A stretch of DNA of 47,983 bases from Alphaproteobacteria bacterium MarineAlpha3_Bin7 (GCA_002937995.1 PTLG01000001.1:1-47983); one strand, 5' to 3'; shown: positions 3,019 through 26,987, numbered from the stretch's first letter. Numbers and translations: made by a program. Notes: generated by a model not told the origin, from the letters alone.

Positions 3019-3020
3019 AA

Positions 3021-4037: not shown

Positions 4038-4063
4038 AGTTGCAAATTAGGGAGGAGGTAATA

Positions 4064-4495: not shown

Positions 4496-4505
4496 GGAGA
4501 AGATT

Positions 4506-4775: not shown

Positions 4776-4948
4776 GTAGAAGTGTTAATTAAAGAACTCA
4801 TACCCCACACCTTAAAAAAAAATTTGGGGAAGTTGTTATTCCTGATTGCCGGGAGCGCAAACATCTAGGTAATCAGTGGCACCTCGATGATCTTCGGTCT
4901 CTGATTTCCTTTGATCGGGAGTGGGGTGGTTTAGTAGGACCCGATTGT

Positions 4949-6757: not shown

Positions 6758-6781
6758 AATAAAAATTTCCTAAAAAGATGG

Positions 6782-7288: not shown

Positions 7289-7354
7289 AGGTATTTCCTC
7301 AAAACCTGTTTAAAATTACAAAACCCTACATTCAGAAGATAATTCCTAGTTATT

Positions 7355-7759: not shown

Positions 7760-7849
7760 TTAAAATAACCATTGTTGTATTTCTTGCTGAGTTTTGAGTA
7801 TAGTAGTATAGGAGATACTTTTCAAATATCAGGAGTAAATGGCAAAAAG

Positions 7850-8536: not shown

Positions 8537-8652
8537 AGGTCAATAGCAACCAGATCCCAATTATTTCTTTTTCATCCAGATAAGCATTACAATTATTGCG
8601 ATAACAACAAGCAGTTCTGTGGAATTCTGTGTTATTTGTTCCATTCTGGTTT

Positions 8653-10278: not shown

Positions 10279-10293
10279 GCGAGCCGAACTTTT

Positions 10294-11088: not shown

Positions 11089-11101
11089 CGATCAATATTT
11101 A

Positions 11102-11773
11102 TCAGGTTGGGACTGAACCCCAGTCTACCGCCTCAAGCTGTACTTCGCTATCTTGGGCAGCCTGTGATGCAGAAGAGGTGCTCTTGCTAAGCCAGACAAA
11201 AAGTTCCTTGAATTTCAGACCATCAAGTTTAACAGGTTTTAGACTGGAGAATTTTTCTAATATATCAAAATTAGCTTCCTCGGTACCTATAGCAAATATG
11301 GTTACCTTGTTGTCATTTTCAGCTTCTCTGCATTCTTGGGCCGTCTCTTCCCAATCATACTCAGTTGGTTCACCGTCAGTAATCAGAAATATCCAAGGTC
11401 TATTGTAGGGTGTTGAATTTTCCCTAAGTGCTTCCTTCTGGTCTTCGATGCGTTCGAGGGCCATGGACATGGCCTTTCCCATTGGGGTCCTGCCATTGGC
11501 TTCAATTGTTGGTGCCTCAAAATCAACGGCATCAGTCCAGTCGGTTACAACTTCTACTTCGTCGTCATCTCCCATCCTTAGAACGCTTAGTCTTACGCGT
11601 TGGGCGGCAGTATCATCATTCTTGAGTTCCTGCTCCAGCACTTTGAGACCTTCGTTGAGCGCTTTGATTGGTTTTCCATCCATGGATCCAGATCCGTCAA
11701 GCACCAGCACGCAGGGTAGTCTTTGGCTCGTATTATCTGTTAACTGAATATCAGGAATTTCTAGTTCACTCAT
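11102..11773 (-). CDS. TerY-like vWA protein of the TerY-P triad
   Basis: 223 aa. Motifs: DNTSQRLPCVLVLDGSGSM (MIDAS D-x-S-x-S), NRPWIFLITDGEPT, LDGLKFKELFVWLS. Confidence 0.85.
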   Translation of the reverse strand: MSELEIPDIQLTDNTSQRLPCVLVLDGSGSMDGKPIKALNEGLKVLEQELKNDDTAAQRVRLSVLRMGDDDEVEVVTDWTDAVDFEAPTIEANGRTPMGKAMSMALERIEDQKEALRENSTPYNRPWIFLITDGEPTEYDWEETAQECREAENDNKVTIFAIGTEEANFDILEKFSSLKPVKLDGLKFKELFVWLSKSTSSASQAAQDSEVQLEAVDWGSVPT

Positions 11774-11840
11774 ATTACCCTCCTAAGACACAAATAACCT
11801 TGTTTGATGCTAACATATAAAGCCTTATAATTGAAAGTAG

Positions 11841-12449
11841 TTAGAGTTCGAGGCGTGCTAAAAGAAGTTCGTCCTCCAGAAATTTTCGTGTTAAAAAATA
11901 AAGTCCTATCCATATGGCTATTAACAACAATCCCCACCAAAAACCAGTCATAATCAATAGGCCGTAATCCAGAATAAGAACGGAAGCGGTATAACCTAGG
12001 ATTGTTATTCGAGCGAATATGCATCTCGCCTCTGCCTCTAACCAAGGTTTTGCCCTATACCAACCCGCCAAACCCAGTTGCTCTTTTTCTGTTTCTGCCT
12101 TTTGAAGTGTACCCTGAAGCCACAATTCCTTCTTTCTGGCCGATCTTATTTCCCGATTAAGTTTTTTACCGAGGGCACTGCGACTATCAAAGTCACCTTT
12201 TTTATTTCGGCGGACATTTTTTCCTCGTAATTCAATATCATTAATTTGTTGCTCAACCTGTTTTAGGTCATTCCTCACATCCAAGAGTTTTTTTTCGGCA
12301 CCTTGCAACCTCTTGGTTTCAGACCCAGTCAATCTGAAGCTTTCATTGGTTGTATATTTTTTTTTACGGAAATCGAACCATTTTTTTAGCTCAAAGTAGA
12401 TCCAGGAGATCGAAAATATCAAGATACCAAATTTAACTATCATAGACAT
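11841..12449 (-). CDS. Coiled-coil membrane protein, partner type A (paralogue of 17028-18047)
   Basis: 202 aa. N-terminal TM helix IVKFGILIFSISWIYF, a charged coiled coil of ~90 aa containing RNKKGDFDSRSALGK, and a C-terminal TM hairpin. Divergent from the KAP NTPase gene at 12643. Confidence 0.6.
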   Translation of the reverse strand: MSMIVKFGILIFSISWIYFELKKWFDFRKKKYTTNESFRLTGSETKRLQGAEKKLLDVRNDLKQVEQQINDIELRGKNVRRNKKGDFDSRSALGKKLNREIRSARKKELWLQGTLQKAETEKEQLGLAGWYRAKPWLEAEARCIFARITILGYTASVLILDYGLLIMTGFWWGLLLIAIWIGLYFLTRKFLEDELLLARLEL

Positions 12450-12642
12450 AATTTATAACCGTATATCTGGTTACTTTAATGAGTTCATAAAATAATAGCC
12501 CATAATTTGCAGAACGAGATAAAAATACGTTACTATCATTATTAAAATGCCGCAAGTTCATAAGGGAGTTATGATTTAACAACACTATCCAGGCATTTGT
12601 TTAGACCAATTGTACCATGGGTTTTTTCAAAGGGGTCAACTT

Positions 12643-14244
12643 ATGGAAAAGGATACAGATAGTTCCAAACCGATCAGTGAGAGGGTGGGTGTCACAGACT
12701 CACCATTAGATGATCTTGACGACGACAAACTTGAGGTGAGGCATTATGCGACGGCCTTGGCAGAGTTTGTAAAGAAAACAGTTACTCCTATGACAATTGC
12801 CATTCAGGGTGAGTGGGGAATGGGAAAAACCACATTTCTCAACCAGGTTTACAGGCAATTAGAGCCAGGAAAAGAGCAGGTTGAACCGGAAACCACCGAA
12901 GGAGCTAATAGTATTCTGAATATTAAATTAGATGCTTGGGATTATGCTCTCTTTAATGGGCCTGAGGAAGCTTTGCGACAAATAATTCATAAGCTTTCTG
13001 TGCGGATATCAGAGGGGGACCGAAAACAGTCAAGAAAGAAAAAAATTATCAATTCTACTACATCACTTGCCCGAAAGGCTTCTTTATTAGGTTTAGGATT
13101 TTTGCCGGGCATGGGTAATAACAAACTGTTGGAAGGGCTTGATATAATCAAAGACGCCGATTCACAGCATGTGCTTGACCTAAAGGAAAATCTGAAGAGT
13201 TCGGTTGCAGAATTAGGTTCCAGGGAAACTAACTCCTATGAAAGGATAGTAATTTACCTTGATAATCTTGATCGAATTAAGCCTGAAGTTGCAGTTGAAA
13301 TCCTCGATTCCCTTAAGATTATTTTTGATCTGGAAAAATGCGTGTTTCTGCTGGCTATTGACTATGATGTAGTTATCAAAGGGCTCGAGAAAAGGTTTGG
13401 CGTGAAGAGAGGGGAAAACGAGCGAGAATTCAGAGCCTATTTTGACAAGATAATACAATTGCCGTTTATGGTTCCCGGTGAGAAATTTCGTATAGGTAGT
13501 TATGTCAAGGAACTACTGAAGGATATTGGCTATAAAAAGGCCGATAAATTTGAAGTAGGGTTTCTAGAAAGTATTGTAAAATGTACAATCGGTGAAAATC
13601 CCCGGTCTATCAAACGGCTGGTAAATAGCCTGTCTCTTTACCAGTTCATCGACAGAAATGAGGGGCAAGAAAAACCGAAATCTGTGGAAGAACAATATTT
13701 AAGGTTTGGGCTTACATGTCTTCAGATATCAGACCGGAATATATATGATACGTTGCAACGTAATTCTGATTTTTTATCCTGGGATGAGAGTTTTTCAAGC
13801 GATGTAACCTATATCAAAGAGACGGAGGAAAAGGAATTCTCGGCCGCGCTGAAAAAGTTGAAGGAAGCAGGGGATGTAAACAAACCCTGGCAAGTATCAC
13901 TTTTCAAGGTCTGTTATGCCGATGTAGAGCTTAGGGAGAGGCATCAAGAAATTGCAAAGTTTTTTGATGAAGTCGTTGAGATATATGAGAAAAAAGAAAA
14001 AGCACTAAAGGCTCATATGGAGGAGGCAATGAAGTCTACCGAAGTGACAAATACAAGAGCAAAAAGGAGCGTACGTAAAAAAAGGAACTACCACTCCCCT
14101 CAAAAGAAAGAACTTGCTGCAAAACGTTTACAAGAACTGGGAAATACACACCAAAATAGGGTTGAGGTTGGTCGCGAATTTAATGCTCATGCCACAAGTA
14201 TAGGCCAGTGGTATGAAAAACATTATGGTGATAAGAACAAATGA
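12643..14244 (+). CDS. KAP-family P-loop NTPase (soluble) with C-terminal basic/HTH-like tail
   Basis: ATG at 12643 with AAGGGG upstream; the ORF-track TTG at 12610 is less likely. Motifs: Walker A IQGEWGMGKTTF, Walker B IVIYLDNLDR, FLLAIDYDVV, FDKIIQLPFMVP, NPRSIKRLVNS. Tail: RVEVGREFNAHATSIGQWYEKH. Confidence 0.85.
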   Translation: MEKDTDSSKPISERVGVTDSPLDDLDDDKLEVRHYATALAEFVKKTVTPMTIAIQGEWGMGKTTFLNQVYRQLEPGKEQVEPETTEGANSILNIKLDAWDYALFNGPEEALRQIIHKLSVRISEGDRKQSRKKKIINSTTSLARKASLLGLGFLPGMGNNKLLEGLDIIKDADSQHVLDLKENLKSSVAELGSRETNSYERIVIYLDNLDRIKPEVAVEILDSLKIIFDLEKCVFLLAIDYDVVIKGLEKRFGVKRGENEREFRAYFDKIIQLPFMVPGEKFRIGSYVKELLKDIGYKKADKFEVGFLESIVKCTIGENPRSIKRLVNSLSLYQFIDRNEGQEKPKSVEEQYLRFGLTCLQISDRNIYDTLQRNSDFLSWDESFSSDVTYIKETEEKEFSAALKKLKEAGDVNKPWQVSLFKVCYADVELRERHQEIAKFFDEVVEIYEKKEKALKAHMEEAMKSTEVTNTRAKRSVRKKRNYHSPQKKELAAKRLQELGNTHQNRVEVGREFNAHATSIGQWYEKHYGDKNK

Positions 14245-14802: not shown

Positions 14803-16851
14803 TTATTCAACTTCATAGGTATAATCGGGGGCTAAATATTTAAGGGCCAGATCTCGTACTTGGGAAAAGCTATTTTCCGGGTTTTCCTCATCCCATTTTC
14901 CTTCTTCCTGAATTGCTTCATTTACGGAAGTTAGACTACCTTTCCCGTAGTCTATTTTTAACCTCTTATCCCAGTGATCTGATGCCATCTCTTGGGATTT
15001 GTCAATTAGAGAAAACAGGATATCTCTGTTCTTTTTATAAATAGTAAGGTCTGAAACGTGTACGTTATATCTGTCCGCATTGTGAGTTGTGCTTGCTTTA
15101 CCTGATCTAAATGTCCGGCCTGGCGTTACTGGTATATCAAAGATTTTTGGCATTTTGTAATCATCTTTAAAATGTCTAATTAATTGCAAAGATGTGCCGT
15201 TTTTTATGGATTTGCTAGATTCAAACTGGCATTTTAGAAATTTGTGTTTTGCAATATAGATGCTCATTCCACCAGTGAATAAAAATTCTGCTTCTTGATA
15301 ACGAGTTTTCAGATCATTATACAACACCGTCATAAATTCAACTGCTTCGGGGTTGGCGTTTTTATTTTCCGTTCCATCTAGGATCCAACTGTCAAAACCG
15401 TCCAGAATACGTCTTTTATAGGCTCCTTCTCTCTCAGGTAAGATGGTTTGACCCTGATCCGTGCTTGTTACACTGGTAACGGATGTCTGGCTTAAAATAT
15501 CTGCAATAATGTTACCTAATTCGTCCACTCGATCTTGAAGTATTTCTTCTTTAAGGTAGTTAAAGAACTTAGATATGTCAGTGCTACGTGGTTTAAGTCG
15601 AGGGCGGACATAGCAAATACGGTATAGTGACTGTTCCCAATCCTCGTCAAAATTATCAGATTTTTTTGCATTTTCAAATTCCCGTTCAAAAACACCCTCA
15701 GCATCTTCCTCAGATCGATTTGTTTCCTTAAAGGCCAGATTGTCATCCCAGATGAGAAAGTTAGGTTCTCTGGTTAAAAGGCTATAGACTGGGGGATAGG
15801 CTATTTGCAGGCATAGCAGGGCAAATAGAAGAAATTTTTCATCATTAATATTTTGTTCTTCGTCTTCCGGTTCTGCGATATCCGTTGTGGCAACTTCGTC
15901 CTTATCTATCTTCTCCTGGGTAAATATCTGAATTAGGGAGACGGAATTCACAAGCCTTTTTATAGAACGAGGATTACCTCCAATGGTGCGACGTATAATC
16001 TCCGTTAGTGCCTCTTCGTCCAGATCTGTTTGTATAAAATCCACTTTTCTAAGAAGAGAATTAACGTATTTTCCAATATTATACTGGCCCATAGGCATCA
16101 TAAAGGGAAGTTGAATGATCTTGTCAAAAAATGCCCGAAACTCCCATTCATTTTCTGCTGTCTGTTTGCCAAACTTATGCTCTAAGCCCTTAACCACAAC
16201 CTGGTAGTCAATAGCCAGAATAAAAATACATTTGGGAACACTAAAAATATTTTTTAGTAATTCCAGGATTGCAACTGCATTTTTGGGCTCTATTCGGTCA
16301 AGATCATCCACATAAATTACCACTTTTTCATAAGGGTTCGTGGACCGATCTGCCATTTGTTCCACAACTTCACTTAGTTGCTTGCGTAGTTCCGCTATAC
16401 TCTTTGCACCGGTATCCAGCAGTTCCTTCGCAACCTCTCCCGCAGCATTGCCGAGTGCAACTTGAGCTCCAACCCTCAGTGCTCCTTTAAATATTGCTTC
16501 GGCGCCTCCTTTTATATTTTTTTTTCGAGTTTCATTCGGGTCTGACTCAATCAGTTCATCTATAATTCTATTAATAATTTTTAAGAGGGCTTCCTCCGGT
16601 GTGGAAAGTAGGGAGTACTCCCAGGAATTAATCCAGATCTGTTTTGTTTTCTCATCACCTTCAAAGTGATGGTGAATGCTATTAATAAGTGATGTCTTAC
16701 CGCTACCCCATTCACCCTGTATACCAATTGTAATGGGGGTATTTGTCTTTTCTATAAATTTAATGAGTGAATTGGTGTGGACATTTATATCGAGTTCGTC
16801 AGGATCTTTGCCTGGCACTGGTTCGTCTATGACACCTATTAGTTTATCCAT
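14803..16851 (-). CDS. KAP-family P-loop NTPase (soluble) with ~220-aa uncharacterised C-terminal domain
   Basis: ATG at 16851 (MDKLIGV) preceded by GGGGGGG. Motifs: Walker A IQGEWGSGKTSL, Walker B VVIYVDDLDR, FILAIDYQVV, FDKIIQLPFMMP, NPRSIKRLVNS. Paralogue of 12643-14244. Confidence 0.85.
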   Translation of the reverse strand: MDKLIGVIDEPVPGKDPDELDINVHTNSLIKFIEKTNTPITIGIQGEWGSGKTSLINSIHHHFEGDEKTKQIWINSWEYSLLSTPEEALLKIINRIIDELIESDPNETRKKNIKGGAEAIFKGALRVGAQVALGNAAGEVAKELLDTGAKSIAELRKQLSEVVEQMADRSTNPYEKVVIYVDDLDRIEPKNAVAILELLKNIFSVPKCIFILAIDYQVVVKGLEHKFGKQTAENEWEFRAFFDKIIQLPFMMPMGQYNIGKYVNSLLRKVDFIQTDLDEEALTEIIRRTIGGNPRSIKRLVNSVSLIQIFTQEKIDKDEVATTDIAEPEDEEQNINDEKFLLFALLCLQIAYPPVYSLLTREPNFLIWDDNLAFKETNRSEEDAEGVFEREFENAKKSDNFDEDWEQSLYRICYVRPRLKPRSTDISKFFNYLKEEILQDRVDELGNIIADILSQTSVTSVTSTDQGQTILPEREGAYKRRILDGFDSWILDGTENKNANPEAVEFMTVLYNDLKTRYQEAEFLFTGGMSIYIAKHKFLKCQFESSKSIKNGTSLQLIRHFKDDYKMPKIFDIPVTPGRTFRSGKASTTHNADRYNVHVSDLTIYKKNRDILFSLIDKSQEMASDHWDKRLKIDYGKGSLTSVNEAIQEEGKWDEENPENSFSQVRDLALKYLAPDYTYEVE

Positions 16852-16961
16852 TTTGTTATTCCCCCCCTGAACAACCCTGACCTGTACACTCTCTAGGTGG
16901 TTCTGCAATTTTCAGTAAATTAGTCTCATATCATTATAAAAAAGCATTATTACATTTGTAT

Positions 16962-17027: not shown

Positions 17028-18047
17028 ATGCAAGCATTTATATTTGTAGCGTTTTGGGGCATAGCAGGTCTTATTGTGTATTTTTTAATTGTCGGAGGAA
17101 TACTTATCTGGCCCATCGTAAATGTATTAGCATACCTTAAGGTCTTGTTATTTCCCAGTGCTGTAAGAAAAATTCATGGAGTAGACCTAAATGTTCTCTC
17201 AAATACCCAGTTTACATCTTCAATTTCTTATAGTGATGTGGAGTATTATGAGGAATTTGAAAGTATGACCGAAACAAATGTAAAGGCTATAAAGGCTGAG
17301 AGAACAGCGGACACAGAAATAAAAAAACTTGAAAAATTGATTAAATCGGCAAGTGACCAGTTTGAAGCATTGGGCAACCTCCCAAGAAATAAAGATGGTA
17401 GTATTTCTCAACGAAGTAATAAAGGAAAGCAGGGAGTAGAACTACAGAAGTCTATAAATTCCCATGAACGTGATTTGGGGCAAATTAATGGAAAATATTC
17501 AAGCGAAATAGAGAAGTATGAAAATAGTCTGGAGATTGAGCGCGACAAATTATTTTCTCGACCGTTTAACGATTGGTTAGAGTGGAGAGGCAGAATGGGG
17601 CGATATTTAGGAAACCGGGATGCCATAGTTTTTATGGTGGTGGGCTTCCCTCTTTACTTTTTTATTCTGTCTATCTTTTCATGGCTTGATCTAGAAGACC
17701 CATCTTTTCTGGGCATTATAGAGCTATACGTTTATACAGTCTTTGTGGGTCCAGTGTCTGGAATTTTTGATCTCGATGTTTTTAAAGAGGGAGCATTTTC
17801 TATTCTCATTACTTATGATTATGCCTCATATTTAAGCCGGACTTGGGATAGTGCATTTACATTTTACAACTGGCTCTTACTAACTTTACCTATGCCAATT
17901 CTTACCCTCTGTACTTATGCTCTCCGTTACCATCAGCACACATCAAAAGCTGATACTGTTCGACCGACCGAGAAAATGTCCTTAAAGGAAATAAAGTCAG
18001 CTTTAAAACAAAGGGTAATCGATGACGTTCCTGAAGCGCAAGCGTAG
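17028..18047 (+). CDS. Coiled-coil multi-pass membrane protein, partner type B (paralogue of 11841-12449)
   Basis: 339 aa. GGTAGGGG lies upstream of the ATG. Two N-terminal TM helices, a coiled coil containing RNKDGSISQRSNKGK, and then several TM helices. Divergent from the KAP NTPase gene at 16851. Confidence 0.6.
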   Translation: MQAFIFVAFWGIAGLIVYFLIVGGILIWPIVNVLAYLKVLLFPSAVRKIHGVDLNVLSNTQFTSSISYSDVEYYEEFESMTETNVKAIKAERTADTEIKKLEKLIKSASDQFEALGNLPRNKDGSISQRSNKGKQGVELQKSINSHERDLGQINGKYSSEIEKYENSLEIERDKLFSRPFNDWLEWRGRMGRYLGNRDAIVFMVVGFPLYFFILSIFSWLDLEDPSFLGIIELYVYTVFVGPVSGIFDLDVFKEGAFSILITYDYASYLSRTWDSAFTFYNWLLLTLPMPILTLCTYALRYHQHTSKADTVRPTEKMSLKEIKSALKQRVIDDVPEAQA

Positions 18048-18296: not shown

Positions 18297-19277
18297 TCAG
18301 AGAGTTCCAAACCATTCTGTTCGATTGGGGTGAACCATATTTGAGAGTTCCTCGGGCTTTATTACCTCTACGTTTTTCCCCCATTGATAGAGGTGCCATG
18401 CCATTTCAAGAATACCCCCAGCCTCAAACTCTACTCTAACAGATCCATCAGGTTCCCGGATTACAATCTGATCAGGATGAAAGCGATAGTTGAGAACATC
18501 TTCCGCAACTTTTGGTGAGAACTTCCAGACGACTTCAAATGGTTCCTCACTAAAAACGCCAAATGATTTATTGGTGTATTCTTCTATAGAAAATTTTTCG
18601 TCTCTTACAAAATATTTTCCGGTTATTTCTACTTCCTCAATATTAGGCATAGCAAATTTTCGTATATCCTTGGCTTTTTCATCGAAAGCTAGAAGATAAT
18701 GTCTATGGCCGTAAATAAGCCCGAGGGGGTGAACTACTCTTTTTGTGCTTCTCTGTGTTTTACGATTTTTATGTCTTATTTTTATTATTTCGCACCCCTT
18801 AATTGCCTCTCTGAGGTCCTCTAGCACAAGTGAACTTATTCTTGGTTTAGGTCCAGGCCTCATCGCTAAGCCTTCTGCTTCTAGGAGTGCCTCCAGGTCA
18901 GGTTCTACTCTTCTAGCGATTTTGCTATCTAATAATGCTCTCAGTTTTGTTGAGAGATCTGCCATGTTTGCCGCGGCGTCCTGCATATTATCACGCTTTA
19001 ATATTTCAACGACAGTATCCAGGTCAGCCAACTCTTCTGGTGTAAATGATATTAGTCGATCCGTTACGCCAGTTGGGATACGCCAGCGTTTTTTTCGGTC
19101 TTCCGAAGTCATTTCGTCAACTTGGGGAAACACCCGCATAACACTATCTTTCATTCTCATTGCAGTCCGTCGACCTACAGAAAAACGCTCCTGGATATCT
19201 TCCAGCGAAACGCCACTGCGGCGGGCCTGCATCTCTAGAGCAAGGTGTATGAGGTCTTCAAATTTTTCGTAACGCAC
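18297..19277 (-). CDS. WYL-domain transcriptional regulator (N-terminal HTH + WYL + C-terminal extension)
   Basis: 326 aa. HTH: GVSLEDIQERFSVGRRTAMRMKDSV. WYL core: VVHPLGLIYGHRHYLLAFDEKAKDIRKF. C-terminal WCX-like region. Confidence 0.8.
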   Translation of the reverse strand: MRYEKFEDLIHLALEMQARRSGVSLEDIQERFSVGRRTAMRMKDSVMRVFPQVDEMTSEDRKKRWRIPTGVTDRLISFTPEELADLDTVVEILKRDNMQDAAANMADLSTKLRALLDSKIARRVEPDLEALLEAEGLAMRPGPKPRISSLVLEDLREAIKGCEIIKIRHKNRKTQRSTKRVVHPLGLIYGHRHYLLAFDEKAKDIRKFAMPNIEEVEITGKYFVRDEKFSIEEYTNKSFGVFSEEPFEVVWKFSPKVAEDVLNYRFHPDQIVIREPDGSVRVEFEAGGILEMAWHLYQWGKNVEVIKPEELSNMVHPNRTEWFGTL

Positions 19278-19329
19278 AGTCTAATCCAAAAAAAAATAGT
19301 AAGTTCGTTTAAATGTGTCCAAAACTGTC

Positions 19330-19342
19330 ATACTCATAGTAT
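19330..19342. promoter_or_regulatory. Short palindrome ATACT-cat-AGTAT in the WYL/PcfJ-like divergent spacer (candidate operator)
   Basis: 5-bp arms separated by 3 nt, located 13 bp upstream of the ATG at 19355 in a 77-bp intergenic region. Short, so could be chance. Confidence 0.2.
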
Positions 19343-19354
19343 CAAATACTTTTC

Positions 19355-20653
19355 ATGATGCAAACAGGTTTAGATTTAGCGGAGAGTAAACCCGTAACAA
19401 AAGCGGTTCCATGGCGCTATCAATATTCAGACAAGAGTCTCGTAGAGGAGGTGCACGATACTCGATATATTTATGGAAACTGGGACCATCTTTTTGGTTG
19501 TTGGAAGCAGGAAACAAATTCCAAGCAGCCAACTGAAATTATTCCACACTGGCTTTTAATAGATGAAAATGGCGTCTGGGTTCAATCGGATGAGGCTTTT
19601 CAGCTTAAATTTCCTAAGATTGGGGCTCGTCAGTCAACTAAGTGGAAACATCAGGAACGGGCAGCCTTTATTGCCTATATTTCTTCTATTCCTAGATCCA
19701 TAAGAAGCCTGGTTGCACCTTTTGGACAATACAGTTGGATATTGTTGGATATGATTTGGCAGATGCCCAAATTTAAGAAATTCCTAGATCAGGAGATAAG
19801 GATAAATCATGGGCAGTATATAGTTGCGGTTTTGGCGCTAGCAAAGGTGCGGGATATAACTCGAGGAGCTAGGCGGCAGATCGCACTCGATATAATGCAG
19901 ACTAAAAGGAAACTAGTGATAGACAGTCTGGTAACTAGTTCCAAAACCAGTATGTTTATCAAATTCCTTCCAAAATTTGGCAGTAATTATTATGAACCGC
20001 AGGTTTATGAGGATGTCCTGAACGCGCTTGTCAGGCCAGGTATTGTAAGGGCAATTTCTGAATTACAGGGCGGAAAACCGGAAATCCTATCCGTTTTGAT
20101 GTGCCTACCTGAAGAGTTTATGGTCCCTGCCGTGGTCCGAATGATCAATTCAGAAAAGTGGGGATATTACGCGAGTTTGAGAAACCTAGTTGCTCTTATG
20201 CGTCTTACGCCAAAGAGTATTCAAACTAGAGTTTTCGATGCTCTTAGAAGCATCCGTACTTCTGAGGAAGCGCAGACCATGGTATCTCGATGGGAGCAGG
20301 CCCTTATAGAAAAAATACATTTTCCAAAACCACCACTGAAGGCTCACAGACAACTCAAGCCAATTACAAGTGCTGCAGAAATGAAGAAGGAAGGCAGAGA
20401 AATGAATAACTGCCTTGCTGATTTAGTCACTGAAGTAATAACCAAAAACAAATATTATTATCGATGGGAAGGACCGGAGCGCGCAACAGTTTGTGTTATG
20501 ATGGTGGGTTTTGGTGAAAATCGCCATTTGACTTCAAACACTGCTGGTGACTGGATATTTTCGCACGCCGCAGGTGTGAAAAACGCGGAACTATCAAACC
20601 AATTAATTGAGTATTTGGCAGGCTTGGTAAAACGACTGAATTTTAGATGTTAG
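19355..20653 (+). CDS. Hypothetical protein with PcfJ-like C-terminal region
   Basis: 432 aa. The C-terminal EMKKEGREMNNCLADLVTEVITKNKYYYRWEGPERATVCVMM resembles the E-G-x-x-M-x-(H/N)-C ... Y ... core I recall for PcfJ-like (conjugative-plasmid) proteins. The rest is unrecognised. Confidence 0.45.
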   Translation: MMQTGLDLAESKPVTKAVPWRYQYSDKSLVEEVHDTRYIYGNWDHLFGCWKQETNSKQPTEIIPHWLLIDENGVWVQSDEAFQLKFPKIGARQSTKWKHQERAAFIAYISSIPRSIRSLVAPFGQYSWILLDMIWQMPKFKKFLDQEIRINHGQYIVAVLALAKVRDITRGARRQIALDIMQTKRKLVIDSLVTSSKTSMFIKFLPKFGSNYYEPQVYEDVLNALVRPGIVRAISELQGGKPEILSVLMCLPEEFMVPAVVRMINSEKWGYYASLRNLVALMRLTPKSIQTRVFDALRSIRTSEEAQTMVSRWEQALIEKIHFPKPPLKAHRQLKPITSAAEMKKEGREMNNCLADLVTEVITKNKYYYRWEGPERATVCVMMVGFGENRHLTSNTAGDWIFSHAAGVKNAELSNQLIEYLAGLVKRLNFRC

Positions 20654-20773: not shown

Positions 20774-21082
20774 ATGAACAATTGGGTTATCGCGGGTTAC
20801 ACCTGTTCTGATCATGCCCAGAAGCGAATGCAGCAGCGTGGGATAAGGAAAGAGAGTGTTGAGGCCGTATTGATGCATGGTGATAAAAGATCTCATCAGG
20901 GAGGAGATGCGGTTGCGATATTTGTGAGCAAAAGAGCCGGTGGGCAATTGGTAAAAGATAGAGTCATTACACCCGCTCTATTGGAGCGTCTCGTCAACCT
21001 CGTCGTTCTTACTGCTGAAGGTATTATTGTGACAACATTTCCTCGAAAAGGAGGCCGATTAAGGCGTGGGGAACCCGCCTAA
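20774..21082 (+). CDS. DUF4258-like small protein (toxin-type fold)
   Basis: 102 aa. YTCSDHAQKRMQQRGIRKESVEAVLMHGD ... GIIVTTFPR matches the H-A-x-x-R-M-x-x-R-G-I pattern of DUF4258. Confidence 0.5.
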   Translation: MNNWVIAGYTCSDHAQKRMQQRGIRKESVEAVLMHGDKRSHQGGDAVAIFVSKRAGGQLVKDRVITPALLERLVNLVVLTAEGIIVTTFPRKGGRLRRGEPA

Positions 21083-21139
21083 CAATAATAATGGGAATAT
21101 TATCGTTACGTAATTAATAGAAAAGGAAGGATTAAAACA

Positions 21140-21679
21140 ATGAGAACAGCTCGAAAAATAGGACAGGTTTCGCTTTTATTTTGGCTCTTTGTGTTTCTGG
21201 TGGGTTGTCAGACAATGGATCCAAATTTTTCCTCGTTTCTGGATAGTGATTCTAATTTTAATATGCCAGAACAAATAATTTTGCCTAGGGATCACGCTGA
21301 AATTAGAGGAAAAAGTCGGGCAGAAACGAATGTTTACAATGCTATCGAGCTAGGAAAACAAAAGCGTTACACCGAAGCCGATAAACTTCTGCGTGAGGTA
21401 AGAGGACTTCAGTATAAGGAAGGAGAGGCTTATAGATCTATAACTAACGCACTAGCAGTGATCGCTCTGAAACGAGGGGATCTAGGAGCTTTTAGGCGGC
21501 TTGCCGGAGAGCTTGATATTCTTTTAGGTAAGCCACTCAGGGTACCTGGAAAACACTTATCTATAATTTCTTTGGAGCGGGCTATATCTGGCGGCCCACT
21601 GCCTTTAAATGCCCCTGAACGCTTTCGACAGTTCAGGAACAACTATTTTTCTAATCTTTCAAAAACTAGGAAACTTTAA
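21140..21679 (+). CDS. Lipoprotein, helical/TPR-like
   Basis: 179 aa. Signal peptide with lipobox FLVGC. Helical repeats (YNAIELGKQKRYTEADKLLREV; NALAVIALKRGDLGAFRRLAGEL). Confidence 0.6.
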   Translation: MRTARKIGQVSLLFWLFVFLVGCQTMDPNFSSFLDSDSNFNMPEQIILPRDHAEIRGKSRAETNVYNAIELGKQKRYTEADKLLREVRGLQYKEGEAYRSITNALAVIALKRGDLGAFRRLAGELDILLGKPLRVPGKHLSIISLERAISGGPLPLNAPERFRQFRNNYFSNLSKTRKL

Positions 21680-21681
21680 AA

Positions 21682-22662
21682 ATGAAAACATTATTAATAA
21701 TTTTTTTCTCATGTTTGTTTGCTGCGACAAATAGTATCGTGGCTGCAGCTACCCAGTCTTCCATAAACAAGGACATGTTCGACACATACGAAAAAATTAA
21801 CGAGAGGACAATTGATCACGAAGAGAAAGTAGAAGCATTGGATGCTCAGAAGAAGGTCATACACAGCAAAATAATTGACCTAAAAAAGCAGCTGGACAAG
21901 CTCTCGCAAGACAAAAATAAAAAGAACAAAGAGCAAATTCGTCTAATTAGGGCAGAAATGAATGCTCAGTCAGCTCAGTATCTGGCATTGGAATTCAAAC
22001 TAGTCACAAGCGCAAAAAATACAATTTCTTCAAACCTGATGGACATTAACAGGGTTCGCGAGAGGCTAGCTAATTCGCCAGCCTCGAAGGCACAATTTAG
22101 GCAACTCAAGAAGAAAATGGAGAAGAATATACAACTTGGTCGCAGTATGAAGAAAAATCTGATTGTTCTGGATCAGTGGGCACAGTCGGATCCAATACTT
22201 CGGGCAAAAATCAGATCATTAGATAGAATTATGGAAAATCTGGATACAAGAATAGAGATCCAGAAGCGCAAATTTCCGATGGATAACAAGGGAAATCGAA
22301 CCAATATTGATAGTAGAAGGCTAGAGGCCTTAAATTTGGCTAATGATCGTTTAGTTGAAGAGTTATCTTCCATAGAAACGCGAATAGATTGGTTAAAACT
22401 CTATAAGGATAAACTAGAGATTAATCTAGATCTATTCAGGGTTCAAAGAACTCTTGATATCACAAATCAGGCACTTCCTCGGTTGCGAATTGGTGAGACT
22501 GGCGGTGGGAGCCCAAGTGGGAAAGTACTAAATATTATTGACGATCTCAACAACGGGATGATGAAAGACACAGATACTATAATTGAGAACCCAAGTACTG
22601 TGCCCAAACCTGATGCAGGACGACCTATAAAAATAGATTTTAAAAAATTTAAAAACTTTTAA
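21682..22662 (+). CDS. Secreted coiled-coil protein
   Basis: 326 aa. Signal peptide MKTLLIIFFSCLFAATNSIVAAA, then long heptad-like charged sequence. Starts 2 nt after the previous stop. Confidence 0.6.
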   Translation: MKTLLIIFFSCLFAATNSIVAAATQSSINKDMFDTYEKINERTIDHEEKVEALDAQKKVIHSKIIDLKKQLDKLSQDKNKKNKEQIRLIRAEMNAQSAQYLALEFKLVTSAKNTISSNLMDINRVRERLANSPASKAQFRQLKKKMEKNIQLGRSMKKNLIVLDQWAQSDPILRAKIRSLDRIMENLDTRIEIQKRKFPMDNKGNRTNIDSRRLEALNLANDRLVEELSSIETRIDWLKLYKDKLEINLDLFRVQRTLDITNQALPRLRIGETGGGSPSGKVLNIIDDLNNGMMKDTDTIIENPSTVPKPDAGRPIKIDFKKFKNF

Positions 22663-22674
22663 GGAGTTAGTTTA

Positions 22675-23073
22675 ATGAAAAAAAATATTTTAGCAGTTCT
22701 ATTTCTCACATTTGCATTTTCCTTAATACACGGAACATCACATGCAGGAGAAAAAGACCAGTTCAAAAATATTACGGTTAAACTGGTGGAGCAAGCCAAT
22801 CACCTTTGTAACAGTATTATACCCATTTGGATAAAGTCAAAGTCAGGGATGCGTGATCAATCGGTACGGCGCCTGGTGACTGACTGCTATCTGGCTCAAG
22901 CACGTTTACCCGGTATCGGTCGTAAGTCGGAGATATTGGTCAAACCAGTATCTCTTGATGAAGTACCTTTAGCCATCCTAGAAAAACAAACGGGCTTTGT
23001 GTTTAATGAGTATGCGCCGCTTGCCGGTGTTAGATTGCGTGTTCTAAAGACTGGGAAATCCGAAAATGAGTAA
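22675..23073 (+). CDS. Secreted hypothetical protein
   Basis: 132 aa. Signal peptide MKKNILAVLFLTFAFSLIHGTSHA. Its 3' end overlaps the next gene by 8 nt. Confidence 0.55.
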   Translation: MKKNILAVLFLTFAFSLIHGTSHAGEKDQFKNITVKLVEQANHLCNSIIPIWIKSKSGMRDQSVRRLVTDCYLAQARLPGIGRKSEILVKPVSLDEVPLAILEKQTGFVFNEYAPLAGVRLRVLKTGKSENE

Positions 23074-23581
23074 AGCAATCGAAGCACCCAAGCCCGTTTC
23101 TGTGGGTAAAATAGGAAGGGAAATCAATTCGGTACTACTGTCGATTATAGTATTAGTGCTGATAGTTATGTTCCTCGATATAAGCTTCTCCATGGATCAA
23201 TTTGGGGAGGCGGAAAAATTTCTTAACAAGTTTGTAGGAATTGCTTGGCCTTTTTTTGTAATAGTCAGCCTCTTTATTAATTGGGTCTTTGGTGCCTGGT
23301 TAACCGAGGTTTTTGTCTCAGACAGCAAACGGGACTGGAGTAAAGTGGTGCGTTACTTGGACTGGGCTGCAGAGGCTTGCCCATACGTCGGTTTGCTTAC
23401 AACTTTTTTTACATTTCTACGGGCACTCCTGGTCTACAGTGATGCTGGCCCAGGAAACCCCGAGACACAGGCAGCCTTTATAAAGCAGTTTGCAATAGCC
23501 TTTGGTTCCTCAATTACTGGGGGAGTATTGGCCTTGGCAGCATTTACATTGGGTGCATTAGTAACGGGGGGCAGGCGATAA
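23066..23581 (+). CDS. Miniature MotA/TolQ/ExbB-family proton-channel protein
   Basis: 171 aa with four hydrophobic helices. Helix 3, CPYVGLLTTFFTFLRAL, matches the P-x-x-G-L-(F/L)-G-T helix of ExbB/TolQ/MotA. The last helix is FAIAFGSSITGGVLALAAF. Confidence 0.6.
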   Translation: MSKAIEAPKPVSVGKIGREINSVLLSIIVLVLIVMFLDISFSMDQFGEAEKFLNKFVGIAWPFFVIVSLFINWVFGAWLTEVFVSDSKRDWSKVVRYLDWAAEACPYVGLLTTFFTFLRALLVYSDAGPGNPETQAAFIKQFAIAFGSSITGGVLALAAFTLGALVTGGRR

Positions 23582-24040
23582 ATGGAGAATAATAATGATA
23601 TTTCCCACAAGTCGCCAACAACCAGAGGGAAAGCTCTTGGCTCAACCAGATCCAGATCATTAAGGCCCCCAACATTGATGATAGATCTTCTTTTTGGGGC
23701 CCTAATGCTTTTTGCCTTCCAGATGGGGTATGTAGACCAGCCTGTTGTTCCAAAGGATATTGAACTTCCCGCCACGAAGGCAGACGTTAAGTCAAAAACG
23801 AAGGAAATCTTGGCGCTGGTACCTGTAAAGAATAAGGCCGGTAACTGGGAATACAGAGTTCCGAGTGGAAAAATTCTTAGTGCTAAGGCTGTGCAGAAAG
23901 AAGTAGCAAAGAATAACAAGACACCCGTACTTATTTTTTCAAAAAAGACAAGTCTACAGGTTTACCTAGAAGCTGAACAACAATTGCGCGAACTGGGGCT
24001 TAAACCGGGTCTTGCAACTAATAACAAGAAGGGAACTTAG
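23582..24040 (+). CDS. ExbD/TolR-family protein
   Basis: 152 aa. TM helix with a conserved Asp (PPTLMIDLLFGALMLFAF), then KDIELPAT, then TPVLIFSKKTSLQVYLEAEQQLRELGL. This is colinear with E. coli ExbD as I recall it. The ATG directly abuts the previous stop. Confidence 0.7.
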   Translation: MENNNDISHKSPTTRGKALGSTRSRSLRPPTLMIDLLFGALMLFAFQMGYVDQPVVPKDIELPATKADVKSKTKEILALVPVKNKAGNWEYRVPSGKILSAKAVQKEVAKNNKTPVLIFSKKTSLQVYLEAEQQLRELGLKPGLATNNKKGT

Positions 24041-24042
24041 AT

Positions 24043-24690
24043 ATGAAAATGTTACTACTATTAGGAATCATTGCTGTCCTCTTTATTATGGCAAACAAAT
24101 CTGATGACCAGGATATATCGGATGTAGTCAATGAGATTACAACAAAGTCAGAAAAAATAATTGGAGAGATTACTCAGGATAAGGTTAAAACGAATAATTT
24201 ATCTAGGACAACTAGGTCTAGTAATATTCCAACGGAGAAAACTCCTGCTAAGAAAAGGCATATTGTAGTTAAGTCAACTGGCAAAGCGGTCACTCCGATT
24301 GTTACGGAAACTAATAAAGAGAAAATTACGAAGAGGTCTCTCGAAGTTACAAATAAGTCGCATGGCGGTATTCTGGGGGCAGATGTAGAAAAATTGCCTC
24401 TCTTTCAAGAGAAAAATAATTTAAATGCTTCAGAAACGACGAAACAAGACACTACTCAATCAGAAGTAAATGCGGTTCCACCAATTTTGCCTGGTCCGAA
24501 GCCTGTAGAGCAAAGACGGATTAAGGCTCCAAAGGTAGAGCCTAAGAGTAGGACAGAGGTGGCAATAAGTTCCCCGTCTCGAGAAGTGTTAGTGGAGGAA
24601 CCGGATCCAGAGGCAGCTAGGATTGTAAGACAGAAGGAGAAAAAGTTTTTTAACCAGGCTGCTAGGGCACTCATGAGTATCACCGAATGA
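24043..24690 (+). CDS. Single-pass membrane protein with extended low-complexity Lys/Thr/Pro region (TonB/TolA-like anchor 1)
   Basis: 215 aa. N-terminal TM helix LLLLGIIAVLFIMA. Periplasmic low-complexity region ending in VPPILPGPKPVEQRRIKAPKVEPK. Confidence 0.5.
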   Translation: MKMLLLLGIIAVLFIMANKSDDQDISDVVNEITTKSEKIIGEITQDKVKTNNLSRTTRSSNIPTEKTPAKKRHIVVKSTGKAVTPIVTETNKEKITKRSLEVTNKSHGGILGADVEKLPLFQEKNNLNASETTKQDTTQSEVNAVPPILPGPKPVEQRRIKAPKVEPKSRTEVAISSPSREVLVEEPDPEAARIVRQKEKKFFNQAARALMSITE

Positions 24691-25619
24691 GTGCTTTAAG
24701 AACACTGGTTCTCTGTATTTGTGTGGTTTTTATAGTTAGCTTCCTTGTTGTAGCAACAGACCGAGACATTCGTGACCTTGTAGCAAGCCCCGTTTTAAAA
24801 CCTACTGCTAAGGTAATACCTCCACTTGCACAGAAACAAAAAACAAAAACTCAAGTCGTTAAGTTTCCAAAAGTAGTCAATTTGGAAACTTATGGCGATT
24901 TTGGAATCCAAAAGCCGGTTAAAATTTTACCATCAAAAAAACCGCCTAAACCCATAAAGAAAATAGTGAAAAAACCGGTCCCAAAAAATACCCCCGAGAC
25001 GAAAGTTAAAAAAAAGATAAAAGCTCCCAAGGAACGTAAGGTTGTTAACAATATAAGCACACCTAGGTCTGTATCTCTACCTCCAAACCGAGAGACTTAT
25101 CCGCAACTTGAGATTGATTATTCAGAAATAGGGCTCGAAAGGTACCTAATAAAAGTAGAAGAGATCGGGAAGATATATCTGGTGCATATGTCAGGTGAAA
25201 GAGGAGAACGCAGGTCGATTGGGAGACAGGTATCATTTGCGAGACGGAAATTGGGAGATGGAACTTATGGTTCTACCTGGAGGAAAATGAAACTTGCCAT
25301 AGATAGGCCTTATTCCATAACCGACAAGGAACTATCTAGGTACATTGGCCTTTTTGAACTGCCGATAAATGTGATGGACGGACAGTTAATTCTTTTTCTT
25401 ACAAAACCGTTTGATGAAAAGCTTTGGCGAGCCCTTGAGAGGCAATTACAAGAGCAAGGTTTTACCCTTTCAGATATTGCAATTGTCAAGGGTGAGTACC
25501 GTAGTGAGGGTCAGCATGTATGGATTGAAATTACTGAGGCCATTACTAAGAAAAAAAAGGGGGAGCAAAAACTAAGGATTGGAGAGGTAATTAATCTTCC
25601 ATGCAGAGATTGTACATGA
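24687..25619 (+). CDS. Single-pass membrane protein with Lys/Pro-rich spacer and unknown ~170-aa C-terminal domain (TonB/TolA-like anchor 2)
   Basis: 310 aa. ATGA overlap with the previous gene. TM helix LVLCICVVFIVSFLVVA. Spacer KKPPKPIKKIVKKPVPKNTPETKVKKKIKAPKE. The C-terminal domain lacks the TonB_C pattern. Confidence 0.5.
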   Translation: MSALRTLVLCICVVFIVSFLVVATDRDIRDLVASPVLKPTAKVIPPLAQKQKTKTQVVKFPKVVNLETYGDFGIQKPVKILPSKKPPKPIKKIVKKPVPKNTPETKVKKKIKAPKERKVVNNISTPRSVSLPPNRETYPQLEIDYSEIGLERYLIKVEEIGKIYLVHMSGERGERRSIGRQVSFARRKLGDGTYGSTWRKMKLAIDRPYSITDKELSRYIGLFELPINVMDGQLILFLTKPFDEKLWRALERQLQEQGFTLSDIAIVKGEYRSEGQHVWIEITEAITKKKKGEQKLRIGEVINLPCRDCT

Positions 25620-25646
25620 AATTGAAACGAGATTAGGAGAAGCGTA

Positions 25647-26297
25647 ATGAAAATAGTCAAAAGTTTGGTGTTTCTTTCCGTGGCAGTTTTAAGCTTGCAG
25701 GGTTGTCAAACAGGTCGCGAGGCAAGTCCCTTTACCTTTTTGGAGGGAAGGCAAGTTCAGGTTGAAAAGGTGCCCAACTATATATCCAAACTATCCAACT
25801 GTGTAATGGTTATGCCCGTAAGTATTGTTAATGAACGTCTAAAAATCTATGGCCCTAACCTAGAAGACGAACTCGCTCGCTATGCACGGGAAAAATTTGA
25901 CGTGGTGATAAAAGCAGATGAAGTGCGGAAAGTAGCTGACACCAATGGTTATATCCCAACTTTTTCACGGGACCAGCAGCAACTGAGACAAAAGTTGAAT
26001 TGTGAGACAGTCTTGCAGGGACGCTTAGTAGGTCCCGGTGAGAAGAATTTTCTTGTTTGGAGTGGCCACGAAGTGGGTATAGAGATTAGTTTTCCAGATG
26101 CACTATCGATGAAAAATATATGGCAAGGAAGACACGTGACGTCGAGATCTGCAGGTGGCATTCCGTTGTCCCCCGTAGGGGTTCTCATAGATACTACAAA
26201 AGCTCAAATGATGGCAATGAACAGCAACGATGTGGTTGCTTCAGTTATTAGTGATGGTGTGAGGCGTATAATGGCCTATTTTCCTAAAGTCTCCTAA
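25647..26297 (+). CDS. Lipoprotein, possibly DUF799-like
   Basis: 216 aa. Lipobox LSLQGC. The layout CVMVMPV ... VLQGRLVG ... NIWQGRHVTSRSAGGIPLSPVGVLID resembles DUF799-type lipoproteins as I recall them. Confidence 0.45.
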   Translation: MKIVKSLVFLSVAVLSLQGCQTGREASPFTFLEGRQVQVEKVPNYISKLSNCVMVMPVSIVNERLKIYGPNLEDELARYAREKFDVVIKADEVRKVADTNGYIPTFSRDQQQLRQKLNCETVLQGRLVGPGEKNFLVWSGHEVGIEISFPDALSMKNIWQGRHVTSRSAGGIPLSPVGVLIDTTKAQMMAMNSNDVVASVISDGVRRIMAYFPKVS

Positions 26298-26477: not shown

Positions 26478-26987
26478 CTAATTGATATATGTGGCAGCAA
26501 ATTTTTTAGACTGTAAGTCTTCATCCGGAACAAAAATATATTTATCACTAAGTGAGCCTTCAAAAGACCAGTTTGCCGGCACGGATAACTGTAATCCCTT
26601 CCTTGAAACTTCCTCATCTTGTTGAAATAGGCCATGCTCGCGGAACCAGCATGCTGAAATCTCTCCAATTGTCCCATCTTTTTTTCTATAGGGAAAATGT
26701 CCAAAATCTAGCCATCGGCAAGAAGTTGTGGGGCCTTTTTGCTGGTCAACAACAGCAATATCAATTGCCTTCGTATTTTTTACAAAAATAAGGCCTTTGC
26801 GCTCGAGGCGATCAATAAAGTGACCTACCTCTCGGGGAGATAAGAAGCCAACCCTTGCGATATTGCTATCGTGGCAAAGTGTTTGGTTGGGAACCATATA
26901 ATTAAACTCGCGCCAACCTTGTAGAAGGTTCTCACGAATAGCTCGTTTTTTAATAACTACTGAAATTCCTTCAGCAATAACCGCCAT
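26478..26987 (-). CDS. Hypothetical protein
   Basis: 169-aa ORF with normal-looking composition and no motif I recognise. Confidence 0.5.
   Translation of the reverse strand: MAVIAEGISVVIKKRAIRENLLQGWREFNYMVPNQTLCHDSNIARVGFLSPREVGHFIDRLERKGLIFVKNTKAIDIAVVDQQKGPTTSCRWLDFGHFPYRKKDGTIGEISACWFREHGLFQQDEEVSRKGLQLSVPANWSFEGSLSDKYIFVPDEDLQSKKFAATYIN

Follow-up and report, generated by a model that had tools for sequence, protein, structure and literature searches.

The 47,983-nucleotide (nt) window analyzed here, the whole of a stretch from Alphaproteobacteria bacterium MarineAlpha3_Bin7 (PTLG01000001.1:1-47983), contains an operon of eight genes, designated G1 to G8 (Table 1), which probably encodes a motor-driven envelope system not previously described and possibly immune in function. 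That the operon specifies an envelope machine built around a stator is likely, and we hold this with good confidence. The whole reading stands at about even chances: a horizontally mobile trans-envelope machine with a minimal ion-channel stator at its base and, as its controller, a DriD-type regulator responsive to single-stranded DNA (ssDNA). All eight genes start with ATG, several of the starts are preceded by Shine-Dalgarno-like sequences, and the junctions from G1 to G8 measure +2, +12, -8, 0, +2, -4, and +27 nt, with G4 and G5 abutting directly. An original prediction made from the sequence alone had listed the same eight plus-strand genes, and all seven of its gaps were reproduced exactly. 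It had also held every product to be envelope targeted, in agreement with the lipoboxes, signal-like N termini, and transmembrane (TM) segments that were located across all eight proteins.

The motor assignment rests on G4 and G5. G4 had been predicted to carry the channel helix of ExbB, TolQ, and MotA, and the pore-helix segment CPYVGLLTTFFTF was indeed found to contain the motif P-x-x-G-L-x-x-T with the pore Thr; P106, G109, L110, and T113 were invariant in 42 sequences. The hhalign alignment placed E103-A-C-P106-x-V-G109-L110-L-T-T113 of G4 on S135...P138...G141-L142...T145 of TolQ, with T113 falling on T145, the essential pore Thr that corresponds to T148 of ExbB (PMC12905483). The AlphaFold2 (AF2) model of G4 had a predicted local distance difference test score (pLDDT) of 86 and comprised four long helices and a short one. 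When it was submitted to Foldseek, 48 among the 50 matches listed were TolQ, ExbB, PomA, or MotA chains, with probabilities of up to 0.95. MotA_ExbB (PF01618) was the sole Pfam match of G4, and ZorA was the only PADLOC defense model to touch it (12.5 bits, E value of 0.012, in the TM region). PF01618 was also the best or only match for 6 of 10 distant members of the G4 family, weakly so for four of them. The other two, P0213 and P0225, matched the G4 profile with E values of 3.8e-27 and 9.6e-15 and scored 34.6 and 34.0 bits against PF01618; since both scores exceed the Pfam cut-off, the G4 family is joined to MotA/TolQ/ExbB by transitivity. At 171 residues G4 is shorter than Escherichia coli TolQ (230), ExbB (244), and MotA (295), and in the AF2 model its chain ends three or four residues past the last TM helix. 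The modeled topology is thus that of four TM helices, as in MotA, with essentially no cytoplasmic residues.

G5, described in the original prediction as colinear with ExbD/TolR, proved to be so. Its TM segment, LRPPTLMIDLLFGALMLFAF, was almost invariant, and Asp35 within the protein was conserved in all 48 homologues, aligning with D23 of TolR; the essential Asp of ExbD is D25. When the G5 family was compared with E. coli TolR by hhalign, the alignment was colinear over 110 columns and paired the two Asp residues (P value of 3e-4); no other among 153 comparisons of families with E. coli proteins, unrelated controls included, scored as well, making TolR the closest E. coli protein to G5. The comparison with ExbD was likewise colinear (P value of 0.15). 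The periplasmic domain (residues 70 to 148) was modeled by AF2 with a pLDDT of about 90, and its Foldseek ranks 1, 2, 4, and 5 were occupied by TolR 5by4 and ExbD 8vgc, 8vgd, and 8p9r. The top-ranked set was TolR 5by4 (E value of 2.8e-3, probability of 1.00), and the ExbD structures had probabilities of 0.97 to 0.99 and TM-scores to target of 0.53 to 0.59. Pfam ExbD was weakly matched by 4 of the 48 homologues (best E value of 0.0065), making it the most frequent family among them, and the Joint Genome Institute (JGI) annotation of two homologues reads "ExbD." On this combination of family-level and fold evidence we accept G4 and G5 as a very divergent pair of the TolQR/ExbBD type.

The other six products are mostly without relatives. 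No match was found for G1, G2, G3, G6, or G7 in Pfam, NCBIfam, PHROGs, PADLOC, or the PDB sequences, and the family profiles of G1, G3, and G7 retrieved nothing informative from the PDB. The two lipoproteins of the original prediction were recovered, with the lipobox LVGC at residues 20 to 23 of G1 and LQGC in G8. The lipobox Cys was conserved in all aligned homologues (C23; C20), that of G1 in 10 of them, and Asp at +2 was absent from every G1 homologue aligned. G8 scored 16.3 bits against the GNA1162-like family (PF05643, DUF799), a weak match below the 25.9-bit cut-off, and the best PDB match of its family profile was GNA1162 (4hrv), also weak (E value of 0.0072). Two independent weak matches to one family suggest that G8 is probably GNA1162/DUF799-like. 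G2 and G3 both begin with a hydrophobic signal-like segment. In 10 of 10 homologues the core of G2 had a hydrophobic period of 3.42 to 3.44 residues, little Pro and Gly, and a charged or polar fraction of about 40%; these features would suit an extended coiled coil or a bundle of helices and are consistent with the coiled coil originally predicted for this 326-residue protein. Its C terminus (nt 22651 to 22662) follows the pattern F/L/Y-x-N-F (Phi-x-N-F), kept by 32 of the 33 distinct homologues compared, and resembles either a peptide for docking or, on a helical protein, the C-terminal signal of outer-membrane proteins. In G3, C45 and C71 were invariant in 11 homologues.

A single N-terminal hydrophobic helix was found in each of G5, G6, and G7, as against several helices in G4. 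The position of G6 between G5 and G7 is conserved, and its consensus (39 homologues) comprises conserved TM and juxtamembrane helices, a variable spacer, and a C-terminal helix, yYEnAsRlL.EIK. In G7, the TM helix (residues 6 to 24) is followed by a linker motif, which reads VVNLETYGDFGI in the window and rlvPLYp.GDl in the family consensus, and then by a Lys/Pro-rich spacer, beyond which about 170 residues form a conserved C-terminal domain; the linker motif may bind G5. Both proteins had been predicted to have Lys/Pro-rich spacers. This was borne out for G7, with 24 Lys and 18 Pro among the 111 residues from 30 to 140, but not for G6, the spacer of which is rich in Lys, Thr, Glu, Val, and Ser and only moderate in Pro. 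G7 has the three-part layout of TonB and TolA, namely, a TM helix, a Pro-rich spacer with a box, and a C-terminal domain. Neither G6 nor G7 matched TonB_C or TolA domain III in Pfam, and the family alignments of their TM helices revealed no conserved His/Ser pattern of the SHLS motif, which is Ser-x3-His-x6-Leu-x3-Ser within a TM helix (PMC12905483). G7 was also considered as a divergent TonB and rejected, its hhalign comparison with TonB (P value of 0.008 over 24 columns) being at the level of unrelated controls. G6 and G7 therefore appear TonB/TolA-like in layout only. As originally predicted, no TonB C-domain, receptor, or Tol-Pal partner was found among the eight proteins or the scanned neighbors in the window.

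To examine conservation, loci were collected by BLAST and hidden Markov model searches of six-frame open reading frames (ORFs), which yielded 7 loci from genomes, 51 from metagenomes, and several assembly contigs. The order G1-G2-G3-G4-G5-G6-G7-(SLT)-G8, in which SLT is an optional gene described below, was kept in every sufficiently long locus. The eight-gene set thus recurs, its order being shared by more than 50 loci from marine metagenomes, and the operon is a conserved module rather than a chance run of ORFs. Homologous clusters numbered 70 for G4, all encoding 170 to 178 residues, all from metagenomes or metagenome-assembled genomes (MAGs) and none with a Pfam domain, and 161 for G5. Only 7 of 185,579 species genomes carried the operon, all of them MAGs labeled Rhodospirillales, Myxococcales, Dehalococcoidales, or "uncultured"; Gammaproteobacteria MAGs were also among the carriers. 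An exhaustive search of 1.84 billion representative proteins with the G4 profile returned 31 clusters only, and the operon was not found in 72,556 plasmids or in 2.9 million viral contigs. The operon is rare and horizontally distributed, and its carriers are all uncultured marine bacteria. In a distant branch (L073/L074), G4 and G5 again come after a lipoprotein and two secreted proteins and before a TM/Pro-rich protein, with sequence similarity detectable for G4 and G5 only. In that branch (positions 2047 to 13170) the conserved core is preceded by genes for a DUF4384 protein, an SLT protein, and unknown ORFs of 544, 184, and 443 residues, and a caspase-family gene and a TonB-dependent receptor gene lie on the opposite strand.

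A WYL regulator had been noted beside the operon. This was confirmed by Pfam matches to WYL (46.5 bits) and WCX (48.4 bits), and the assignment could be sharpened: in a phmmer search of the PDB, residues 1 to 315 matched Caulobacter crescentus DriD (8tp8, 9pfq) with E values of 7e-61 to 8.5e-61. No other WYL regulator was matched in the PDB at an E value of ≤0.01, so that DriD is the nearest solved relative, and identity as a BrxR/CapW-type repressor was rejected. The regulator gene adjoins the operon in 16 of the 24 loci with enough flanking sequence. The motif GTGACCG-N4-TGACAC (as GTGAC-N7-GTCAC) was present in the regulator-proximal intergenic region of 14 of 14 distinct divergent loci, and the window copy, GTGTCCAAAACTGTCAT, was the sole match within 48 kb even when one mismatch was allowed. 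Searching 547 kb of loci with the pattern [AG]TG[AT]CC-N5-TGNCA[CT] gave 42 matches, compared with about 2 expected for uniform base composition, and nearly all of them adjoin a promoter. The boxes lie 5' of the PcfJ-like gene discussed below, and at least 13 loci have a second copy directly 5' of G1, three of these having the regulator downstream. A -10-like hexamer follows the box by 12 to 13 nt, the box itself overlapping the -35 position.

The likeness to DriD extends over the whole length of the regulator, and R36, R37, and T38 occupy the reported DNA-contact positions by numbering rather than by alignment. The boxes share a 5-N7-5 layout and a T-rich center with those of DriD, the center being CGTTTCT in several loci, as in the didA site. 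Their half-sites differ, being GTGAC/GTCAC here compared with ACGAC/GTCGT in DriD boxes, and so does their overlap with the -35 position. In Caulobacter, DriD turns on the division inhibitor DidA. The reported DriD consensus is ATACGAC-N7-GTCGTAT (PMC10853764), and DriD is the activator of an SOS-independent damage response (PMC9186387). Since DriD engages its operator after binding ssDNA (PMC9186387, PMC10853764), the operon described here may likewise respond to ssDNA. Its regulon would differ in comprising an envelope operon and island genes instead of recA and didA, and the data suggest an island-wide DriD-like regulon of conflict genes. Taken at the level of the family, the regulator and the conserved boxes make DriD-type control of the operon very likely; for G1 to G8 of this particular window we are less sure. 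Here the PcfJ-like promoter would probably drive the operon by read-through, because the window has lost, or never possessed, a G1-proximal box, the DUF4258 ORF being inserted there. DriD-type boxes were also seen before other nearby genes in L017 (position 14220, an ARPP-1 gene), L039 (15879, minus strand), and L034 (7526), with further boxes near the operon in L044 (3253), L049 (12040 and 12637), and L024 (2013).

Three additional genes were considered as components. Of the 24 loci for which 2.6 kb or more of upstream DNA was available, 16 had the PcfJ-like gene, which was thus as frequent as the regulator gene; its homologues lie upstream of G1 in most loci and after G8 in L001. Because it co-occurs so often and its position shifts in this way, it belongs to the system as a frequent component rather than a mere neighbor. 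Its product has no TM segment and is cytoplasmic, and a word-index search placed 12 clusters in the family. The PcfJ name is weakly supported, as 3 of 15 members matched Pfam PcfJ (PF14284) with E values of 0.02 to 9e-4, the window protein scoring 15.2 bits and the best member 19.5 bits against a cut-off of 25. The family profile retrieved nothing informative from the PDB sequences, and the full-text literature on PcfJ yielded only the C. elegans pCFJ plasmids. The DUF4258 ORF was a firmer match (30.3 bits, cut-off of 25) but was shared only by the window and L007; it is an incidental accessory insertion outside the conserved system. Of the WYL, PcfJ, and DUF4258 genes that the original prediction had asked about as companions of the operon, the first two recurred with it in most loci and the third did not, and among the two named neighbors the DUF4258 identity stood and that of PcfJ remained weak. 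The DUF4258 ORF is an orphan with no antitoxin ORF adjoining it, and it occupies the site of the G1-proximal DriD box of other loci. Finally, among the 34 loci in which G7 and G8 were both present, 8 had an extra 0.45 to 0.6 kb between them, the annotated cases of which were a lytic transglycosylase (SLT, PF01464). The same gene appeared in four of five JGI gene lists and is lacking in the window; SLT is thus an optional ninth gene. The original statement that no enzymatic effector is encoded accordingly holds for the window and not for the family. Because both the regulator and the PcfJ-like gene are absent nearby in 8 of the 24 loci, G1 to G8 are the core of the system.

The setting was described in the original prediction as a defense-type island, and conflict genes were found to flank the window locus and most homologous loci. 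In the window the operon lies downstream of two KAP NTPase genes, a TerY-like VWA gene, and a PP2C phosphatase gene. On other contigs the neighbors included Dnd genes, DarT, ZorA-like, NERD-UvrD, PD-(D/E)XK-plus-UvrD pairs, CHAT-TPR, SNF2 helicases, DUF2779, and ARPP-1. PADLOC analysis of 140 flank proteins from 19 loci identified four KAP NTPases, three caspases, and two GajB proteins, in addition to BrxA, BrxB, MkoA, MADS, type IV restriction, HmaA, and others. SNF2 helicase, DUF2779, ARPP-1, and NERD-UvrD genes recurred within 10 kb of the system on unrelated contigs (L001, L017, and JGI sample 3300072015) and may be either passively carried island cargo or partners in function.

Next, we compared the system with those already described. 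Ion-driven 5:2 motors (MotAB, ExbBD, TolQR, GldLM, and ZorAB) form a small set of devices that move inner-membrane energy elsewhere. As predicted, none of the described systems corresponds to G1 to G8, with no match in Pfam, NCBIfam 2026, PADLOC v2, PHROGs, or the full-text literature. In PADLOC v2 the eight proteins, the PcfJ-like protein, and the DUF4258 protein gave only noise (E values of 0.008 to 0.04), the regulator alone matching its WYL models, and the literature contained no ExbBD/TolQR-type defense system of this kind and no such gene set. The motor is an unusually small new branch of a known superfamily; the partner set, the regulatory input, and the genomic niche are new.

The Tol-Pal system is similar in having a TolQ-like gene followed by a TolR-like gene with the TM Asp and the same periplasmic fold, then bitopic inner-membrane proteins with long spacers, as well as outer-membrane lipoproteins and periplasmic proteins, including a coiled coil (in Tol-Pal, the N terminus of CpoB). 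It differs in that TolQ has 230 residues and three TM helices, unlike the 171 residues, four TM helices, and absent cytoplasmic domain of G4. The SHLS motif, TolA domain III, the TolB propeller, and an OmpA-like Pal are all missing here, and the present system is rare, island borne, and DriD regulated rather than core. It would appear that a Tol-Pal-like logic has been built from unrelated parts. The Ton system likewise has a channel gene followed by an Asp-bearing partner, with the ExbD-like periplasmic fold (8vgc, 8p9r) and, in TonB, a layout like that of G7 (TM helix, Pro/Lys-rich spacer, and C-terminal domain), but TonB_C, SHLS, and a receptor are lacking from the operon and the window flanks.

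Zorya also places a MotAB/ExbBD-type pair in defense islands, and a ZorA-like gene adjoins one of the homologous loci. In Zorya, the long cytoplasmic tail of ZorA signals inward to nuclease/helicase effectors, whereas G4 has no cytoplasmic part, G5 lacks the OmpA-like peptidoglycan-binding domain of ZorB, and all the partners here are periplasmic or outer-membrane proteins. Relatives of ZorC, ZorD, and ZorE were not found, and the seven proteins other than G4 had no PADLOC Zor match. The Agl-Glt/Nfs complexes of Myxococcus similarly combine a TolQR-type motor with TonB-like bitopic proteins, periplasmic helical/TPR proteins, and lipoproteins; no outer-membrane barrels or cytoplasmic platform were detected here, and beyond the motor none of the eight proteins had recognizable homology to those complexes, a distinction drawn without specific Glt/Nfs models; the resemblance is an analogy, architectural only. 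The concept is shared by the vWA force transducers, in which tolQ/tolR-like genes are syntenic with a TPR gene and with genes for TM helix-linker-globular proteins having a C-terminal domain that is neither TonB nor TolA (PMC12204202). The C-terminal domain of G7 is not vWA (no Pfam match), its TM helix has no SHLS His, and gene set, regulation, and island context differ. According to Williams-Jones et al. 2025, more envelope systems with 5:2 motors remain undiscovered (PMC12204202).

In the mechanism we propose, G4 and G5 would form a 5:2 proton-driven rotary unit. Because G4 has no cytoplasmic domain, the output would be directed outward, with force passing through the periplasmic domain of G5 and the anchored, extended G6 and G7. 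G7 would serve as a TolA/TonB-like force transducer with a different C-terminal domain, acting on the outer-membrane lipoproteins G1 and G8 and the periplasmic G2 and G3, and SLT, where present, would open the peptidoglycan. In the cytoplasm the partner would be the PcfJ-like protein, and the DriD-like factor would switch expression when ssDNA accumulates during phage replication or after DNA damage. The most likely role, judged by genomic association only, is an envelope-level response to phages or mobile elements that could exclude further entry or abort infection through damage to the envelope or the proton motive force (PMF). An immune system is thus a possible reading that we put forward tentatively, somewhat short of even chances. 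It would constitute a new immune class, in which ssDNA acts through a DriD-type regulator on a proton motor that works outward on the envelope, so that entry is blocked or the cell is sacrificed; this we advance with, if anything, a little more reserve.

Several observations weigh against this proposal. At the level of the motor, the window G4 scored 15.0 bits (E value of 0.021) against PF01618, below the 22.9-bit cut-off, so that the match to MotA/ExbB models expected in the original prediction failed for the window protein and succeeded for the family, through the two distant members described above. The Foldseek scores of G4 were weak (E values of 0.16 to 3, TM-scores of 0.26 to 0.42, and a root mean square deviation of about 21 Å). 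The 42-member G4 profile found no ExbB, TolQ, or MotA chain among the PDB sequences at an E value of ≤10. Likewise, the window G5 did not match Pfam ExbD (PF02472), and the G5 profile found no ExbD or TolR chain in the PDB sequences. As to regulation, no box directly precedes G1 in the window, activation and repression cannot be told apart for a box lying on the -35 position, and one-third of the scorable loci have neither regulator nor PcfJ-like gene nearby. With respect to immunity, no effector was recognizable in the window, the known DriD regulon serves the repair of damaged DNA and cell division, every carrier is uncultured, and the make-up of the flanks, typical as it is of defense islands, is a qualitative association.

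The main rival is that the operon is an envelope module of the DNA-damage response, in which the DriD-like factor induces a Tol-like machine that steadies the outer membrane or delays constriction during repair. The closest characterized relative of the regulator is DriD, an activator of the SOS-independent damage response (PMC9186387), Tol-Pal, the nearest functional analogue, acts at the division site (PMC12204202), and no nuclease or classical immune effector was present among the window-encoded proteins scanned. However, the extremely rare and patchy distribution is unlike that of a housekeeping damage response, the neighbors are overwhelmingly conflict-system genes, and the operon carries its own copy of the regulator along. 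We therefore regard this rival as unlikely, though it is the most serious of those considered.

It is rather improbable that G4 and G5 are non-conducting relics, forming a passive envelope scaffold, or a stand-alone, toxin-like channel that depolarizes the membrane without transducing force. Of the cytoplasmic elements of its relatives G4 retains none, and no plug, D-box, or SHLS features were identified. Against this, the Asp of G5 and the pore-helix Pro, Gly, and Thr of G4 are invariant across members that are otherwise only 40 to 60% identical, which argues for a conserved ion path. A mobile-element transfer or surface-exclusion apparatus, recalling the accessory genes of type IV secretion systems (T4SS), is more improbable still. 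About one-third of the loci do have an SLT gene, lipoproteins, bitopic proteins, and a PcfJ-like protein are encoded, the name PcfJ derives from a conjugative-plasmid gene (although the matches here are weak), and transposases or integrases occur on some contigs, but the plasmid and viral searches were negative, no VirB4/VirD4/relaxase-type gene was present in the neighborhoods read, and none of the eight proteins matched a T4SS family in Pfam. Least probable of all is an ordinary but divergent Ton/Tol paralogue for uptake or outer-membrane maintenance, as might be suggested by the TolQR/ExbBD likeness of G4 and G5, the two "ExbD" annotations, and the TonB-dependent receptor gene that L073 has at a distance of about 5 kb on the opposite strand: no TonB_C, SHLS, TolB, Pal, or receptor occurs in or next to the window operon, the regulator is of the DriD type rather than Fur or similar, and the core-genome paralogue that the original prediction had named as the competing outcome is ruled out by rarity (7 of 185,579 species genomes, 31 clusters, and no plasmid or viral copies).

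Each new motor output has taught something new, and under the stator reading six partner proteins without known relatives join motor biology. If that reading is true, the 171-residue G4 would be the smallest functional MotA/ExbB-type stator subunit so far, and a motor stripped to its TM core would help to define the minimal functional stator. If the defense reading is also true, this would be the second motor-based defense system after Zorya, acting outward on the envelope, opposite to the inward action of Zorya on DNA. It would also be the first of its kind to be controlled by a DriD-type regulator, tying ssDNA sensing to an envelope response. The conserved box supplies a promoter-regulator pair open to immediate testing.

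Table 1. Coordinates of the operon and neighboring features in the window
Feature	Position (nt)	Strand	Description
G1	21140-21679	+	179-aa helical lipoprotein, lipobox LVGC
G2	21682-22662	+	326-aa secreted protein, predicted coiled coil/helical
G3	22675-23073	+	132-aa secreted protein, two invariant Cys
G4	23066-23581	+	171-aa minimal channel subunit of predicted MotA/TolQ/ExbB type
G5	23582-24040	+	152-aa TolR/ExbD-type subunit, TM Asp35
G6	24043-24690	+	215-aa single-pass inner-membrane protein
G7	24687-25619	+	310-aa single-pass protein, Lys/Pro-rich spacer, C-terminal domain
G8	25647-26297	+	216-aa lipoprotein, lipobox LQGC, probably GNA1162/DUF799-like
DriD-like regulator	18297-19277	-	wHTH-WYL-WCX, divergent from operon
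Putative DriD-type operator box	19315-19331	+	GTGTCCAAAACTGTCAT; family consensus GTGAC-N7-GTCAC
"PcfJ-like" gene	19355-20653	+	432-aa cytoplasmic protein
DUF4258 ORF	20774-21082	+	BrnT-type toxin-like, Pfam 30.3 bits
541-aa ORF	8653-10278		Beside VWA/PP2C genes; no PDB or PADLOC match
TerY-like VWA protein	11102-11773		Beside PP2C phosphatase (10294-11088)
KAP NTPases and membrane ORF	12610-14244, 14803-16908, 17028-18047	+, -, +	Two KAP NTPases (PifA/QatA/PDC-S20-like) and adjoining 339-aa membrane ORF without family match
169-aa ORF	26478-26987	-	Convergent; weak LexA DNA-binding-domain match (E value of 0.0048); not beside operon in other loci

Scans of the window for tRNA genes and Rfam families found none, and those for promoter and terminator consensus sequences gave counts not above those of shuffled sequences. 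A complete TerY-P triad was considered for the genes farther upstream and rejected, a kinase not being supported for the 541-residue ORF, which had no PDB or PADLOC match; the segment from nt 8653 to 12449 looks like an incomplete or variant module of the TerY-P type. Immediately 5' of G1 there is an inverted repeat of 11 nt (21080 to 21090 and 21098 to 21108).

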